From a virus, in the UHGV virus genome UHGV-0060032: a stretch of DNA of 14,617 nt; one strand, given 5' to 3'. A program made the position numbers and the translations under genes. Positions 4,298 through 14,352 of the stretch are shown here, one piece after another. A model generated the notes under the pieces. That model ran no database searches and was not told the origin of the DNA. It was given only the letters and a program-made list of their open reading frames with translations. The stretch's first letter is position 1, and each line of letters opens with the position of its first letter.

Positions 4298-4466
4298 CCC
4301 ATCCCAATCCCTTCAATACCAGAAAGAAAGCGTCGAGCGGGCTTTAACGTGCGCTAACTGCGGTCAGAAGCTGCATGTGCTGGAAGTTCACGTGTGCTCC
4401 GATTGCTGCGCAGAGCTGATGAGCGATCCGAATAGCTCAATGTACGAGGAAGAAGACGATGAATGA
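4290..4466 (+). CDS. ninF: NinF-like small Cys-rich protein
   Basis: 58-aa ORF absent from the supplied track (under 60 aa); MLSPSQSLQYQKESVERALTCANCGQKLHVLEVHVCSDCCAELMSDPNSSMYEEEDDE; CxxC...CxxCC pattern; overlaps both neighbours. Confidence 0.5.
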   Translation: MLSPSQSLQYQKESVERALTCANCGQKLHVLEVHVCSDCCAELMSDPNSSMYEEEDDE

Positions 4467-5181
4467 GTTAATAAATGGCAATGCCATCAAAATGACAAGC
4501 ATTGAAATCGCTGAGTTGGTGGGAAGTCGTCATGACAAGGTGAAACAATCTATTGAACGACTGGCGGCTCGAGGTGTGATCCGAAATCCCCCAATGGTGG
4601 TTTTCGAAAAAATCAATAACTTAGGATTACTTCGTGGCGTAGAGGCTTACGTTTTTGAGGGCGAACAAGGTAAGCGAGACAGCATTATTGTCGTCGCTCA
4701 GTTGTCGCCGGAATTCACCGCTCGTCTTGTTGACCGTTGGCGAGAGCTTGAAGAAGCTGCGGTTAATATCCCCAAAACGCTACCAGAAGCGTTGCGCCTT
4801 GCTGCTGATCTTGCTGAGCAGAAAATGCAACTGGAAAACCAGCTCGCAATTGCCGCACCTAAAGTTGAGTTTGCCGATCGCGTTGGCGAGGCCAGCGGAA
4901 TTTTGATTGGAAACTTTGCAAAGGTTGTTGGTATTGGTCCAAACAAACTGTTTGCGTGGATGCGCGATCACAAAATCCTTATTGCTTCAGGTTCCCGGCG
5001 CAATGTGCCAATGCAGGAATATATGGAGCGCGGCTATTTCACAGTGAAAGAAACAGCGGTCAACACAAATCACGGAATACAGATATCGTTCACCACAAAA
5101 ATCACCGGGCGTGGTCAACAGTGGCTGACCAGAAAGCTGCTCGATAACGGAATGCTGAAAGTAACAGGGGAGGCTGCTTAA
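4459..5181 (+). CDS. Phage antirepressor-like protein (Rha/AntA-like N-terminal region, KilA-C/ANT-like C-terminal region)
   Basis: 240 aa; N-terminal SIEIAELVGSRHDKVKQSIERL resembles Rha/Ant N-domains; C-terminal half (APKVEFADRVGE...YFTVKET...) resembles KilA-C domains. Assigned by recall of family motifs. Confidence 0.6.
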   Translation: MNELINGNAIKMTSIEIAELVGSRHDKVKQSIERLAARGVIRNPPMVVFEKINNLGLLRGVEAYVFEGEQGKRDSIIVVAQLSPEFTARLVDRWRELEEAAVNIPKTLPEALRLAADLAEQKMQLENQLAIAAPKVEFADRVGEASGILIGNFAKVVGIGPNKLFAWMRDHKILIASGSRRNVPMQEYMERGYFTVKETAVNTNHGIQISFTTKITGRGQQWLTRKLLDNGMLKVTGEAA

Positions 5182-6593: not shown

Positions 6594-6668
6594 GGGTCAG
6601 TCGTATAAAGGTCATTACGGAAGGCTGTTAACCTTCTTATCGTGGTTCGAGTCCACGCTGTCCCGCCA
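6594..6668 (+). tRNA. tRNA-Asn (anticodon GUU), phage-encoded
   Basis: Hand-folded cloverleaf, 75 nt: acceptor GGGTCAG/CTGTCCC (one U-U mismatch), U8, anticodon stem GAAGG/CCTTC with loop CUGUUAA, T-arm CGTGG-TTCGAGT-CCACG, discriminator G and encoded CCA. Confidence 0.6.
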
Positions 6669-6673
6669 AACAT

Positions 6674-6749
6674 GCTGGTTTAGCTCCAATGGTAGAGCGG
6701 TCGCCTTGTAAGTGAATAGGTAGCGGTTCAAATCCGTTAACCGGCACCA
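6674..6749 (+). tRNA. tRNA-Thr (anticodon UGU), phage-encoded
   Basis: Hand-folded cloverleaf, 76 nt: acceptor GCTGGTT/AACCGGC, D-arm GCTC-CAATGGTA-GAGC, anticodon loop CUUGUAA (stem has one G-A mismatch), T-arm AGCGG-TTCAAAT-CCGTT, discriminator A and CCA. Confidence 0.55.
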
Positions 6750-8359: not shown

Positions 8360-8911
8360 ATGAATGATATTTCTATCGAATATCTGAAAGAAGCACTGGA
8401 ATACGCACCAGATACTGGTGTTATCCGTTGGAAGCAGCGACCAAAAATTCATTTTAAGACCGAAAATTCTTGGCGGGCGACCAATGCTAATTTTGCTGGA
8501 AAAGTAGCAGGCGCACGTGATAGCGATGGATATTTGCGTATCGGGATATGCGGCCGGTTATATAGATCTCATCGTGTAGCCTGGGCGTTACATTACGGCT
8601 ACTGGCCTGATAATGAGATTGATCACATTTCAGGCGATAGGAGTGATAACCGCATAGACAACTTGCGATCAGTAACTTCGGCAGCCAATAGCAAAAATTT
8701 GCGCCTTTACTCCACAAATAAAACCGGTATCCCAGGAGTAGGTTGGTATAAAGCGCGGGGAAAGTGGAGAGCAAAGATAAACGTCTCTGGGAAGGTGAAG
8801 CATATTGGTTACTTCGATGATTTCCGTGAAGCGGTGAAAGCAAGAAAGGCTGCCGAGATGCAGTTGCAATATCACAAAAATCACGGAACCAGAGACAGGC
8901 TCACTTTCTAA
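8360..8911 (+). CDS. HNH endonuclease with C-terminal AP2-like DNA-binding region
   Basis: 183 aa; HNH core HRVAWALHYGYWPDNEIDHISGDRSDNRIDNLR; C-terminal GIPGVGWYKARGKWRAKINVSGKVKHIGYFDDFREA resembles AP2 domains of phage endonucleases. Confidence 0.75.
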   Translation: MNDISIEYLKEALEYAPDTGVIRWKQRPKIHFKTENSWRATNANFAGKVAGARDSDGYLRIGICGRLYRSHRVAWALHYGYWPDNEIDHISGDRSDNRIDNLRSVTSAANSKNLRLYSTNKTGIPGVGWYKARGKWRAKINVSGKVKHIGYFDDFREAVKARKAAEMQLQYHKNHGTRDRLTF

Positions 8912-8925
8912 AAGGTAAAGACGCT

Positions 8926-9450
8926 ATGAATAATCATTCAGTTATTCCATCCTTCGACTTCCGAGAAATGGTGCAAGCCAAAAACGGAGAGGTCGTTACC
9001 ACATCCAGAAAAATTGCCAAGTACTTCGGCAAGCGACACGGTGATGTTCTCAGGAAAATCGAGCAGGTTAAGGCTGATTGCTCGCGTGAGTTTAGCCAAC
9101 GCAATTTTGCGTCGGCTGATTATATCGATGAGCAGGGCAAGGTTCGCCCGATGTACAGCCTGACGAAAGATGGCTGGATCATGGTTGTGATGGGGTTCAC
9201 CGGGAAAGCTGCTGCGGCAATCAAGGAGAGCTATATCGCAGCATTCAACTGGATGGCAGAGCAGCTAAACCGGCGCATGGCGATGGGTGAAGAATTGCAG
9301 CATCGCTACGCCATCAAAGAAACGCGCTCAAAGCTGAAAGGCACGTTCGGAAGCCGTTTGATGAACGAGCGGAAGAAAGAGAAGCGCGTCCTGGAGCTCG
9401 AACATGAGCACATCATGCAGGTAACGCAGCCGGAATTACTTATTGGCTGA
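8926..9450 (+). CDS. Phage regulatory protein Rha family
   Basis: 174 aa; VVTTSRKIAKYFGKRHGDVLRKIEQV...MYSLTKDGWIMVVMGF matches the Rha-domain pattern as I recall it. Confidence 0.65.
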   Translation: MNNHSVIPSFDFREMVQAKNGEVVTTSRKIAKYFGKRHGDVLRKIEQVKADCSREFSQRNFASADYIDEQGKVRPMYSLTKDGWIMVVMGFTGKAAAAIKESYIAAFNWMAEQLNRRMAMGEELQHRYAIKETRSKLKGTFGSRLMNERKKEKRVLELEHEHIMQVTQPELLIG

Positions 9451-9510
9451 TCGCGGCATTACAGAAGCCCTTCATTGAGGGGCTTCGATAATGGAGCACT
9501 GGAATTATTC

Positions 9511-10131
9511 ATGAACAGACCACACCCACCAGCGCATTTTACGATGCCACCTGACCCGAAGCCGTACATCAGCATTATGCCCGCTAATGACGTTGGCGAG
9601 TGGCTGAATCAGCACATCCTGAGCGATGAGGGTGACCTCTACAACCATGACCACCAGCATTTGCTTGAAGCGGATCTGTGCTTTCTCTGGGCATCGAACG
9701 CTTTCGAGAAGAAAGGGCGTTCCGTGCTGGGGCAGGCGGAAGAAGTGGCAATGCGGGCCGGAGGCTGGCAGAAAGCGCGGATGGAGCAGCAGATGTATGA
9801 ATGGTTCGGCAGGGTGCCGCAGTTCATCATCACGCTGGCCGCCGATTACTGCTCGCAATGTTCCGATCTGGAATTCTGCGCGCTGATAGAGCACGAGCTT
9901 TATCACATCTGCCAAGCGACAGATGAATTTGGTGCGCCGAAGTTCACGCAGGAAGGGCAGCCAAAGCTGAAGCTGCGCGGCCATGACGTGGAAGAGTTTG
10001 TGGGCGTGGTTCGCCGTTACGGTGCGAGCCGGGACGTGCAGGAAATGATTGATGCGGCGAATCAGCCAGCGGAGGTTGCTCATCTCGATATTGCCAGAGC
10101 GTGCGGGACGTGCATGCTGCGACTGGCTTAA
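9511..10131 (+). CDS. Hypothetical HExxH-motif protein (putative zinc metallopeptidase-like)
   Basis: 206 aa from ATG 9511 (TTG 9475 or ATG 9544 also possible); HExxH motif in ALIEHELYHI preceded by CSQCSDLEFC; GC-rich codon usage like the packaging genes. Confidence 0.5.
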   Translation: MNRPHPPAHFTMPPDPKPYISIMPANDVGEWLNQHILSDEGDLYNHDHQHLLEADLCFLWASNAFEKKGRSVLGQAEEVAMRAGGWQKARMEQQMYEWFGRVPQFIITLAADYCSQCSDLEFCALIEHELYHICQATDEFGAPKFTQEGQPKLKLRGHDVEEFVGVVRRYGASRDVQEMIDAANQPAEVAHLDIARACGTCMLRLA

Positions 10132-10162
10132 ATACTGGACTGTATAAGACGAATGGTGATTT

Positions 10163-10636
10163 ATGGCTGCATTAAAACCTGATGTGAAAGCCTTCATCAT
10201 TCAGTCGCTTGCGTGCTATGACACGCCATCGCAGGTGGTCGAGGCTGTCCAAAAAGAATTCGGGATCAGGATCACCCGCCAGCAGGCTGAATCTCACGAC
10301 CCCACGAAGGCCAGCGGTAAGACGCTCGCCAAAAAGTGGATCGAGATGTTCCACGCGACGCGCGAACGGTTCCTGACCGAAACCAGCGACATTCCGATAG
10401 CGAACAAATCCTATCGCCTCCGCGTGCTTGACCGCATGGCAACCAAAACCGAGGGGATGAAAAACTTCTCCCTGACGGCGCAGCTTATCGAACAGGCCGC
10501 GAAAGAGGTTGGCGACGCTTACACCAATAAGCTGAAGGTTGAGAGCACTGGCAAGGATGGCGGCCCGATCAAGACCGAGACGACCAACCTCACCGCAGAT
10601 CAGGCCGCAGAGATTTACCGCAAGATGATGGGGTGA
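10163..10636 (+). CDS. Terminase small subunit (DUF2280-like)
   Basis: 157 aa; [35 protein letters not shown] resembles the DUF2280 putative small-terminase family as I recall it; directly upstream of and overlapping TerL. Confidence 0.6.
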
Positions 10637-10638
10637 TC

Positions 10639-12261
10639 ATGCCTCTCCCGTTTGAATTCGATTTCAGAAACCCTGATTACCAGATGGTTTTTGAATGGCG
10701 GATGGAGCGCTTACAGCGCATTCGCCAGAACCCTGAAATGCTGCCAGCGCTAAAGCAGTTTTATCGCACCAACCCGGCACAGTTCATCATCGACTGGGGT
10801 ATGACTACTGACCCGCGTAACATCGATTATGGCCTGCCGGTCACCATCCCTTTTCTGCTGTTCCCGAAACAGGAAGAGTGGATTCACTGGATCATGGAGC
10901 GGCGCGAACGACTGGAGAACGGCATCACCGAAAAGAGCCGCGAAATGGGGCTCAGTTGGACCGCGATCGGGCTGGCCTGCTCGCTTTGTCTCTTCAACAA
11001 AGAAATGGTTATCGGTTTCGGCTCCCGTAAAGAGGAATACGTCGACAGCACCGGTGACCCGAAGGCGCTGTTCTGGAAGGCGCGAAAGTTCGTGGAAACA
11101 CTGCCCATCGAGTTTCGTGGTTCGTGGGACGAGAAGAAGCATGCGCCGTATATGCGCGTTGAGTTTCCCGATACTGGCGCGGTCATCAAAGGCGAGGCTG
11201 GCGACAATATCGGTCGTGGTGACCGTACCACGCTCTACCTGGTGGATGAAGCTGCATTCCTCCAGCGTCCTCTGTTGATTGATGCGGCGCTGTCGCAAAC
11301 CACCCGTTGCCGTATTGACCTGAGCTCGGTTAATGGCATGGCGAACCCGTTCGCGCAGAAGCGTCACGGCGGGAAGATACCGGTATTCACATTCCACTGG
11401 CGGGATGATCCTCGCAAGGATGAAGAGTGGTATCGCAGGGAGTGCGAGAAAATCGACAATCCGGTGGTGGTGGCGCAGGAACTTGACCTGAACTACAGCG
11501 CATCTGCGGAAGGCGTCCTGATCCCGTCCGACTGGGTACAGGCTGCCGTCGACGCGCATATCAAACTTGGTATTCAGCCAACGGGCAAGCGACTGGGCGC
11601 GATGGACGTCGCCGACGAAGGCCGGGACAAAAATGCCTTTTCGACCCGTCACGGCTTCCTTCTGGAGAACGTGCGTGAATGGTCCGGCGTGGGCAGCGAC
11701 ATTTACCAGTCCGTTGAGAAGGTCTTCGGCTTTTGCGAACAGGACAACCTCGAAGAATTTCGCTTCGACGAGGACGGCCTGGGCGCTGGCGTTCGCGGCG
11801 ATGCACGCGCCATCAACGAACTGCGTAACGCTGCGCGCCGACCGTCAATACTCGCCACACCGTTTCGTGGTAGCGGCGCGGTATTTGATCCGGACGATGA
11901 AGCGGTGCGCGGGGACAACGGACAGGCCGCACGCCTGAACAAGGACTTCTTCGCCAACGCCAAGGCCCAGAGCTGGTGGCATTTACGCAAGCTTTTCCAG
12001 AACACCTATCGCGCCGTGGTTGAGGGCATGGCCTACAACCCGGACGAAATCATCTCAATCAGCAGCGCCATGGCGAGCAAAGACAAACTCATCATCGAGC
12101 TGTCGCAGCCGACCTACTCCATTAATGGCGTGGGGAAAATCGTTGTTGATAAACAGCCTGATGGCACCAAGTCGCCGAACCTCGCCGACTCGGTGATGAT
12201 CAGCTACGCGCCAATGAATTCAGCCCTGAACATCTGGGAGCTGCTAGGGAGACAGGCCTGA
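10639..12261 (+). CDS. Terminase large subunit
   Basis: 540 aa from ATG 10639 (in-frame GTG at 10633); Walker-B-like [11 protein letters not shown]; size and position between TerS and portal; acidic C-terminal half consistent with a nuclease domain. Confidence 0.75.
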
Positions 12262-13730
12262 TGGCACGAAACAAGCAATCCTCTCAGCGAACGGCACAGC
12301 CCACCGCTGACGGCTACGAGAACTTCGTCGCCCGTGTTGGGATGCAGACGCCTAACCAGCATTCAGCATCGACCTACCGGGCGAACTCCACCAGCCGCAA
12401 CCGCATGCTGGTGGAATGGTCATATCGCGGTTCGTGGGTTATCGGTGAAGCGGTCGACGCTATCCCGGACGATATGACCCGAAAGGGCATTCGCATCACT
12501 TCGGAGATTGACGCCAAAGACCGTGGCACCCTCGAAGCGCAACTGGATGAGTTGCAGATCTGGGATGCGCTGAACGACGTGCTGAAATGGTCGCGCCTCT
12601 ACGGCGGCGCGGTCGGCTTCATCATGATCGAGGGGCAAGCACCAATGACCCCGCTGCGACTCGAAACCATTGGCGAGGGCAAGTTTAAGGGCATTCTCCC
12701 GCTCGACCGCTGGATGATTAACCCGGTGCTGACACGCCGCATTAAAGAGATGGGGCCGGACCTCGGCAAGCCTGAGTTTTACGACGTGGTGACCACCGCA
12801 ACGGGCATTCCGGCCTGGCGCATCCATCACAGCCGCCTGATCCGCTTTGATGGCGTCACGCTGCCATTCCAGCAGAAGATGACCGAAAACGAATGGGGAA
12901 TGTCGGTTGTAGAGCGTATCTGGGATCGGCTTACTGCGTTCGATAGCGCTACTGTCGGCGCGGCGCAGCTGGTCTATAAAGCGCATCTGCGTACCTATAG
13001 CGTGGAGAAGTTGCGCGAGCTTATCGCGCTTGGAGGCCCGGCGTTCGAAGCGTTGCTGAAGAACATCGACCTGATCCGCCAGTTCCAGAGCAATGAAGGT
13101 ATGACGCTCATGGACTCGCGGGATAAGTTCGAAACCCACCAGTACAGCTTTAGTGGTCTGGATGACATTCTTTCGCAGTTTGCTGAGCAGATCAGCGGTG
13201 CCGTTGGTATCCCGCTGGTACGCCTGTTCGGTCAATCCCCGAAAGGCTTCTCTACTGGTGATGCAGACCTCGCCAACTATTACGACCGGGTGAGCTCATT
13301 GCAGGAGCGCCGCTTACGGCTGCCGATGCGCCGGATACTGGACATTATGCACCGCTCGGAACTCGGAAAGCCGCTGCCGGACGATTTCACGTTTGAGTTT
13401 AACCCGCTATGGCAAATGTCAGACGTTGACCGATCAACGGTGGCCGTAAACACCACCAACGCGATCAGTACCGCGCTGGGCGACGGATTGATGACGCGTA
13501 AGGCGGCGATGACCGACCTGCGCGAAAACTCTGACGTCACCGGCATCGGGGCATCCATTACCGACGAGGATATCGAGAATGCCGAAGACGAAGCGCCGCC
13601 AGGCATCGGCGAACTTGGCGACAAACCGCCAGAGTCGCCAGGCGGAGATCCGATATCGAACGAGCCTACGGCAGATAGCGCGGGCGGTCGGGGATATCGT
13701 AAATGGGCGCTACGATGGTTCAAACGATAG
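12261..13730 (+). CDS. Portal protein
   Basis: 489 aa; ATGA overlap with TerL stop; position after TerL and before a Mu-F-like gene (SPP1-type order); acidic low-complexity C-terminus. Confidence 0.7.
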   Translation: MARNKQSSQRTAQPTADGYENFVARVGMQTPNQHSASTYRANSTSRNRMLVEWSYRGSWVIGEAVDAIPDDMTRKGIRITSEIDAKDRGTLEAQLDELQIWDALNDVLKWSRLYGGAVGFIMIEGQAPMTPLRLETIGEGKFKGILPLDRWMINPVLTRRIKEMGPDLGKPEFYDVVTTATGIPAWRIHHSRLIRFDGVTLPFQQKMTENEWGMSVVERIWDRLTAFDSATVGAAQLVYKAHLRTYSVEKLRELIALGGPAFEALLKNIDLIRQFQSNEGMTLMDSRDKFETHQYSFSGLDDILSQFAEQISGAVGIPLVRLFGQSPKGFSTGDADLANYYDRVSSLQERRLRLPMRRILDIMHRSELGKPLPDDFTFEFNPLWQMSDVDRSTVAVNTTNAISTALGDGLMTRKAAMTDLRENSDVTGIGASITDEDIENAEDEAPPGIGELGDKPPESPGGDPISNEPTADSAGGRGYRKWALRWFKR

Positions 13731-14352
13731 CGTCACCGAAATAATGGATGCGCTGGAGCGCTACAGCGAAATCATCACCCCCTGGGCGACGAAGGTTGCT
13801 GAGAACTTCACCGCAGACATAGCGCGCCAGAATGAAAAGCAGTGGCGTCAGCACAGCCGGAACATCAGCGCAGAGCTGCGCAACATGGTTGACCGCGCCC
13901 CGGTAGGCCAGGTGATGAAATCCATCGTTGCCGAGCAAATTAAGTACATTAAATCGCTGCCTCTTGAGGCCGCCGATCGGGTGTATGACATTCAGAACAA
14001 AGCCATCGAGGCTGTTGTGACTGGTGGCCGCGCTGAGCCATTCGCGAAAGAGATAGCTGCTTCCGGTGACGTGTCACGCTCACGAGCGAACCTTATCGCC
14101 CGGACTGAGCTTGGGCGCGCAACCGGTGCACTGGATCAGGCGCGTGCGCTGTCAATCGGCTCGAATGGTTATATCTGGCGTACAGCCGAAGATGGCGACG
14201 TCCGGCATTCTCATCGAGAGATGGAAGGGAAGTTTGTCGAATGGGGCCGACCTCCAACGCTTGACGGCATGACCGGTCACGCCGGGGAGTTACCTAACTG
14301 CCGTTGCTACAAAGAAATCGTATTCCCGACACCTCATCCCTATCTCGCCTGA
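13579..14352 (+). CDS. Head morphogenesis protein (Mu F / SPP1 gp7 family)
   Basis: Conserved C-terminal region ANLIARTELGRATGALDQARALSIGSNGYIWRTAEDGDVRHSHREMEGK... typical of Mu-F-like proteins. Start is uncertain: ATG 13579 has a GAGGA RBS but overlaps portal by 152 nt; ATG 13744 is the alternative. Confidence 0.7.
   Translation: MPKTKRRQASANLATNRQSRQAEIRYRTSLRQIARAVGDIVNGRYDGSNDSVTEIMDALERYSEIITPWATKVAENFTADIARQNEKQWRQHSRNISAELRNMVDRAPVGQVMKSIVAEQIKYIKSLPLEAADRVYDIQNKAIEAVVTGGRAEPFAKEIAASGDVSRSRANLIARTELGRATGALDQARALSIGSNGYIWRTAEDGDVRHSHREMEGKFVEWGRPPTLDGMTGHAGELPNCRCYKEIVFPTPHPYLA

Follow-up and report, generated by a model that had tools for sequence, protein, structure and literature searches.

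A zincin-fold PF18894 protein encoded beside a DUF2280-type, probable small terminase in a segment of lambdoid prophage

The stretch of DNA considered here, 14,617 nucleotides (nt) of the UHGV virus genome UHGV-0060032 and called the window throughout, is a segment of a lambdoid prophage in which a putative metallopeptidase gene lies directly before a DUF2280 gene, with a large terminase (TerL) gene following. As a gene call the metallopeptidase is ordinary, being a further member of a catalogued, uncharacterised family; it is the linkage to DUF2280 that is the interesting part, and this we regard as a testable lead. The features at issue are:

9511–10131, + strand: metallopeptidase gene, coding sequence of a PF18894 (PhageMetallopep) protein of 206 amino acids, 23.4 kDa, isoelectric point (pI) 5.2
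10132–10162, + strand: spacer of 31 nt, with a GAC-N7-GAC direct repeat and GGTGA before the DUF2280 ATG
10163–10636, + strand: DUF2280 gene, 157 amino acids, pI 9.1, PF10045 match of 167.6 bits; probable small terminase
10633–12261, + strand: large terminase gene, 542 amino acids, moderate match to PHROG 2 (E = 2e-32); outside the conserved pair

The pairing was followed through 99 loci taken from annotated phages, IMG/VR contigs and metagenome contigs, and in 97 of these a DUF2280 gene is found directly downstream on the same strand, with a gap of 30–32 nt in 77 of the 97 (31 nt in the window). One of the two exceptions, Burkholderia vB_PL1, still has the pair, split over the two ends of its linear record and with an HNH gene inserted between; the other is taken up below. 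Of the records in the phage collection, 144 contain the metallopeptidase and 328 contain DUF2280, the latter made up of 181 Salinibacter phages and 147 others whose genus counts are nearly those of the metallopeptidase (for the two genes, Acinetobacter 62/62, Pseudomonas 44/44, Vibrio 8/8 and Burkholderia 7/7). For the two proteins identity to the window also co-varies across loci (r = 0.88, n = 96), and the metallopeptidase keeps 45–70% identity between phages of Enterobacteria, Pseudomonas, Vibrio and Acinetobacter, in step with DUF2280. The pairing is kept at 39–43% identity and in long forms of the metallopeptidase that carry an N-terminal extension. A member only 36% identical lies directly before a gene of small-terminase size and then TerL, and the gene in that small-terminase position is not detectably DUF2280.

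At the level of DNA, blocks of homology with relatives run from about 9457–9560 to about 10530–10575 and so end inside DUF2280, before its C-terminal tail. In the 98%-identical relatives (loci L007–L011) homology begins at 9457, after the stop of the upstream Rha gene, and Rha is absent. Among about 80 relatives no mosaic breakpoint falls between the metallopeptidase and DUF2280 genes. Window positions 10530–10700 (DUF2280 tail plus TerL start) match junctions between a terminase small subunit and TerL in many E. coli prophages, and those prophages have the same TerL type, a 190-amino-acid small terminase that is not DUF2280 and no metallopeptidase gene. From the homology limits and the matches of the tail/TerL junction it follows, therefore, that the mosaic unit is the metallopeptidase together with the N-terminal and central parts of DUF2280. 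This two-gene unit travels intact between otherwise unrelated phages having different large terminases, portals and heads: the TerL type of the window is found by tblastn in only 7 of 86 loci carrying the pair, most relatives having unrelated types, with PHROG 38 TerL proteins in ZF40, an Acinetobacter phage and a Vibrio phage, and at other loci the pair precedes PHROG 38 large terminases, PF04860 portals and HK97-type heads.

The DUF2280 protein is probably a small terminase. Its stop codon overlaps the TerL start, and its C-terminal tail is swapped according to the TerL type, at least six distinct tail types being present among relatives. The AlphaFold2 model (predicted local distance difference test, pLDDT, of 70) shows a three-helix bundle at the N-terminus, with long helices, a disordered linker and, at the C-terminus, a further helix. 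Some depositors label DUF2280 homologues as small terminases, and the paper describing ZF40 suggested this for gp40 (PMC3391216), while PHROG assigns the DUF2280 protein no function. The initial annotation had put the metallopeptidase gene immediately upstream of TerS; the position is right, there being 31 nt to the DUF2280 start at 10163, and the small-terminase identity of that neighbour is what we infer here. The large terminase of the window has no Pfam match at E ≤ 0.01, and RefSeq calls the identical E. coli protein a hypothetical protein.

Within the spacer the direct repeat GAC-N7-GAC (GGACTGTATAAGAC) has halves that vary together in relatives, as TGAC..TGAC, GGAC..GGAC and GAA..GAA, and it could be a protein-binding or a translational-control site. 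The two proteins differ in charge (pI 5.2 for the metallopeptidase and 9.1 for DUF2280), and such complementary charges are weak evidence, compatible with a metallopeptidase–DUF2280 complex. The literature found in searches does not mention a linkage of PF18894 with DUF2280.

The metallopeptidase was initially described as a protein that could not be assigned to a family. That is wrong, because it matches PF18894 ("Putative phage metallopeptidase") with 147.3 bits against a cut-off of 23.7, the match spanning positions 2–134 of the 134 in the profile and residues 30–184 of the protein. PF18894 is the sole Pfam family matched at E ≤ 0.01, and neither NCBIfam nor PADLOC gives a match. The family is a large one, with 3468 clusters at 90% identity from a word-seeded search and 903 representatives at 50% identity from an exhaustive HMMER search.

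A zincin-like metal site had been proposed from the letters of the DNA, to be given up if structure prediction showed no zincin-like fold, and the predicted fold supports it. The AlphaFold2 model has a pLDDT of 94 and a predicted template modelling score (pTM) of 0.88, with mean pLDDT lower at the C-terminus (75 over residues 191–200 and 50 over 201–206), and it shows the zincin arrangement of a mixed beta-sheet, a backing helix and an active-site helix carrying HExxH. The fold search matched projannalysin (7.8), selecase (7.0), the SprT domain of Spartan (6.7), proabylysin (6.5), BepA (6.3), the predicted zincin 3e11 (6.0), YbeY (5.9), BlaR1 (5.6) and Wss1 (5.3), every match covering about 90 residues at 6–16% identity, and the top six are peptidases or predicted peptidases. 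A fold search of BFVD returned only other PF18894 proteins, and sequence searches of solved structures, with the single protein and with a 99-sequence profile, gave nothing meaningful. There is little room for doubt that this is a PF18894 protein with a minimal zincin fold.

Conservation was counted in an alignment of the query and 132 full-length representatives of 50%-identity clusters, 133 sequences in all, with residues numbered from the ATG at 9511. The segments of note are:

9652–9660, + strand: H48-Q-H50 (HxHL motif), conserved histidine pair, possible half of a second metal site
9850–9861, + strand: C114-S-Q-C117 (CxxC), lineage-specific and not a family feature
9892–9906, + strand: HExxH (H128, E129, L, Y, H132; IEHELYH), presumed two zinc ligands and catalytic glutamate
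9982–9993, + strand: H158-D159-V-E161 (GHDVEEF motif), candidate third zinc ligand and second-shell residues
10102–10113, + strand: C198-G-T-C201 (CGxC), possible second half of an HHCC metal site, or cysteine-switch-like tail

The HExxH motif picked out by the initial annotation is present and conserved among homologues, H128 and E129 being invariant (133/133) and H132 kept in 132/133; in the model it lies at the C-terminal end of helix 119–131, with H132 just past the helix. A lone HExxH could arise by chance in such a window, although this one goes beyond chance because it is near-invariant among homologues. The GHDVEEF segment (H158 in 132/133, D159 in 124/133, E161 in 127/133) would be the natural place of the third zinc ligand, for which it is a candidate, and HExxH together with H158, D159 and E161 probably forms a catalytic zinc site. 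Going by these residues, it is likely that the protein is an active metallohydrolase. A second, structural metal site, or else a latency tail, may be made by H48 and H50 with C198 and C201, which are present in 129, 126, 130 and 115 of the 133 sequences, respectively, and all together in 107.

The cluster of cysteines near HExxH to which attention had also been drawn fares less well. C114, C117 and C123 are indeed there; as a metal site, however, the CxxC at 114–117 is rejected for poor conservation, C114 and C117 occurring in 27/133 each with alanine commonest at both positions, and C123 is found in 101/133.

The frame and start of the gene seem well settled. The + strand open reading frame (ORF) ending at the stop at 10131 has possible starts at TTG 9475, ATG 9511 and ATG 9544, a choice at first left as ambiguous, and a start at ATG 9511 is supported by four kinds of comparison. 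Positions 3–208 of the 208 in the PHROG 513 profile match residues 2–206 as numbered from this ATG; M-x-R-P-x-P-P is the N-terminus of homologues, and an earlier start is impossible in several of the homologous ORFs; starting from ATG 9544 would cut off the conserved RPxPP, of which P4 is kept in 118/133 representatives; and the RefSeq start of the identical E. coli gene is the same ATG. That E. coli gene belongs to a prophage of strain ECONIH5 which is 100% identical to the window over 9400–10700, and there RefSeq names the product of the same 621-nt coding sequence "putative metallopeptidase" (WP_016243560.1). Citrobacter phage Omnitron likewise encodes a 100% identical metallopeptidase protein. 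Against about 80 relatives, mismatches at codon positions 1, 2 and 3 of the + frame are 0.17, 0.09 and 0.49.

The metallopeptidase gene is covered along its whole length by an antisense ORF of 231 amino acids (9505–10200, − strand). As Pfam gives no match to this ORF and the pattern of substitutions points to the + frame, we reject it as the real gene and take it for a shadow ORF.

The wider neighbourhood in the window is that of a lambdoid prophage, and reads as follows:

Upstream gene order: replication genes O and DnaC/IstB-like, then NinB, NinX, Ant/KilAC and RusA
Middle gene order: Q antiterminator, tRNA-Asn, tRNA-Thr, holin, lysozyme and Rz
Downstream gene order: HNH/AP2, Rha, metallopeptidase, DUF2280, large terminase, portal and MuF-like head protein
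8926–9450, + strand: Rha-family regulator (PF09669), a variable upstream neighbour unlinked to the metallopeptidase gene

The metallopeptidase gene is part of the late operon that is transcribed under Q. It comes after Q, holin, lysozyme and Rz and outside the immunity region, and no XRE-type repressor gene adjoins it. Of 86 related loci only 9 have a Rha homologue upstream. Two Rha-related genes are present in the window, one in the nin region (4459–5181, Ant/KilAC, with a weak Rha-like N-terminus) and the Rha gene at 8926–9450 after the lysis genes. An HNH_3 plus AP2 homing-endonuclease gene at 8360–8911 is absent from the ECONIH5 prophage, otherwise identical over 9400–10700, and also from Citrobacter phage Omnitron, in which homology begins near window position 8892; it has the look of a mobile element inserted recently between Rz and Rha. 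The tRNA genes, Asn (GTT) at 6594–6668 and Thr (TGT) at 6674–6749, lie between the Q antiterminator and holin genes. Beyond the terminase genes the portal ORF (12261–13730) shares about 150 nt at its 3' end with the MuF-like head-morphogenesis ORF as listed (13579–14352), and the true start of the latter is probably further downstream.

What the metallopeptidase does with its partner can be put forward only tentatively. The protein would be a zinc-dependent hydrolase, probably a peptidase, working with the DUF2280 small terminase as DNA packaging starts; it may act by processing or turnover of the small terminase, or alternatively by removal of a protein bound to the DNA that is due for packaging. 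That a zinc hydrolase and a DUF2280-type small terminase make up a two-gene module, with the hydrolase acting at packaging, is, as a whole and judged from sequence, quite possible if a little short of probable, and much the same caution attaches to the functional link with the small terminase or packaging taken by itself. Any named substrate would very probably be the wrong one. A role in packaging is likelier than the cleavage of a repressor, because the gene is nearly always inherited as a unit with a DNA-packaging protein. In a stronger form, which we consider unlikely, the PF18894 protein would be a third component of DUF2280-type terminases, a zinc protease required before headful packaging, whose target would be the small terminase or else a protein bound where packaging starts.

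Several observations weigh against a packaging role. Co-inheritance alone can yield tight linkage. The 181 Salinibacter ruber phage records have a DUF2280 protein (33% identity) without a metallopeptidase match, and so DUF2280 does not need the metallopeptidase in general; in the one such record examined, Salinibacter phage 4_20 (locus L100, 3432–4480), DUF2280 lies directly before a 540-amino-acid gene in the large-terminase position, and the gene upstream of DUF2280 encodes a hydrophobic, membrane-like protein. Nor are all PF18894 members found at terminases. The second exception among the 99 loci, Bordetella PHB04, has no DUF2280 gene and is a distant member not beside a terminase; ORF14 of phi105 (100.8 bits) comes after a nuclease gene of ERCC4 type and lies 3.7 kb ahead of cos; and a 34%-identical member is downstream of single-stranded DNA-binding protein (SSB) and DUF5131 genes on a 139-kb contig. 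The short form of the protein, being acidic (pI 5.2), is unlikely to bind DNA alone. Full-text literature on PF18894, DUF2280 and PhageMetallopep yields only genome annotations, and no functional study of either family was found: PF18894 is named in Burkholderia phages as an annotation only (PMC12860723), DUF2280 appears in a table of Acinetobacter prophages (PMC7760358), and gp39 of ZF40 was called a transposase from annotation alone (PMC3391216).

The contexts of the PF18894 family are those of DNA transactions, being either replication/recombination modules or the packaging operon. In about 36 of 150 listed representatives the metallopeptidase domain begins after residue 55, and the N-terminal extensions of these long homologues, roughly 35–120 residues, are mostly helix-turn-helix-like, with sub-threshold matches to HTH_Tnp_1 (E = 0.003) and weak ones of Fis/Cro type; they show no relationship to DUF2280, and the window protein is without one. 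Present in around a quarter of representatives, such extensions hint that the protein deals with material bound to DNA.

A different explanation starts from the variable slot that separates the lysis genes from those of the terminase: the protein would be an accessory ("moron"), counter-defence or host-takeover protease directed at a host protein such as a defence factor, and the linkage to DUF2280 would be mere proximity in one mosaic block. In the window the slot upstream of the terminase genes does hold the accessory genes HNH and Rha as well, the Salinibacter phages have a DUF2280 that works without the metallopeptidase gene, and distant members of the family are away from terminase genes. 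Genes of the accessory or counter-defence kind usually evolve fast and are patchily distributed, however, and unlike them the metallopeptidase gene accompanies DUF2280 in 97 of the 99 loci at a fixed spacing, with no mosaic breakpoint between the two among the roughly 80 relatives; its 45–70% identity across four host groups, in step with DUF2280, and its want of a PADLOC match argue in the same direction, and a moron of this kind seems to us unlikely.

A hydrolase of zincin fold need not be a peptidase, and YbeY, an RNase, is among the fold matches. The protein could then act on nucleic acid or nucleotides, for example by aiding pac cleavage as HNH proteins aid some terminases. HNH accessory genes have a comparable place, at the genome end beside the small terminase, and the distant members beside ERCC4 nuclease or SSB genes in DNA-metabolism modules, together with the helix-turn-helix-like extensions of some members, would also suit. 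The invariant glutamate of HExxH is nevertheless a peptidase signature which YbeY, using HxxxHxxxxxH, is without, and it is invariant here as in peptidases; with the six best fold matches all peptidases or predicted peptidases, and the short form acidic, a non-peptidase activity is distinctly improbable.

Much less survives of the suggestion that the protein resembles ImmA/IrrE and cleaves a phage repressor or partners Rha. It had been noted at the outset that metallopeptidases beside phage regulators sometimes cleave repressors or host factors, and a HExxH zincin fold adjoining a Rha-family gene would be in keeping with this. The Peptidase_M78 family of ImmA/IrrE (PF06114) is however not matched at E ≤ 0.01, PF18894 being the only Pfam family found; the gene belongs to the late operon after Q, holin, lysozyme and Rz and not to the immunity region, with no adjacent XRE-type repressor gene; and Rha is upstream in 9 of the 86 relatives only and missing from the 98%-identical ones, the conserved partner being the downstream DUF2280. 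A regulatory protease is thus a highly improbable reading of this locus. The label of transposase, given by PHROG 513 and several GenBank depositors, probably arose because of the helix-turn-helix-like extensions of some homologues with their sub-threshold HTH_Tnp_1 match, and is almost certainly mistaken: Pfam finds no transposase catalytic domain, the fold is a zincin, the window protein has no such extension and the ZF40 label came from annotation.

Comparison with known systems sets the packaging hypothesis in context. To PF18894 itself, as represented by WP_016243560.1, the window protein belongs as a full member with no difference. The minigluzincins projannalysin (4jix), selecase (4qhf) and proabylysin (4jiu), which are among its best fold matches, share 12–15% identity with it and no relationship at the level of sequence; the phage protein has in addition a conserved N-terminal segment of 55 residues (RPxPP, W31, HxH) and the C-terminal CGxC tail, and minigluzincins are archaeal and free-standing, not phage packaging genes. 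The SprT, Spartan and Wss1 proteases are DNA-dependent, remove DNA–protein crosslinks and carry extra zinc-binding elements. A likeness to these (6mdx, 5xbn, 5ln5) is seen in the conserved extra histidines and cysteines of the phage protein, which could likewise bind zinc, and in family contexts of DNA packaging or replication/recombination. In contrast, there is no Pfam match to SprT-like or WLM families at E ≤ 0.01, the window protein is acidic, and its candidate third ligand H158 stands 26 residues from H132, a spacing unlike theirs.

HNH accessory proteins adjoin the terminases of HK97-like phages, and HK97 gp74 reportedly has a role in terminase cleavage. With these the analogy is one of position only, a small metal-dependent enzyme being encoded next to terminase genes at the genome end; the fold is zincin and not HNH, the HNH-type systems are those of cos phages, and a corresponding role for the metallopeptidase would be by analogy. 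ImmA/IrrE proteins are, like the protein here, HExxH metallopeptidases of mobile elements, and are set apart from it by the M78 family, by position (a late operon and no neighbouring repressor) and by its linkage to a small terminase instead of an immunity region.

For work on this family it is clear that the idea of repressor cleavage should not be carried forward, and that a widespread "transposase" mislabel, carried by PHROG 513 and many GenBank records, is corrected. In phages of Enterobacteria, Pseudomonas, Acinetobacter, Vibrio, Burkholderia and Rhizobium a well-conserved zinc enzyme and one family of small terminase are inherited as a unit, no matter which large terminase, portal or head comes next, and the enzyme appears from its conserved residues to be catalytically intact. 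Were the PF18894 protein indeed a third component of DUF2280-type terminases, it would matter about as much as the HNH accessory proteins do in HK97-like phages. If the enzyme proves to be needed for packaging, a proteolytic step would be added to the initiation of phage DNA packaging and DUF2280 would gain a firm role.

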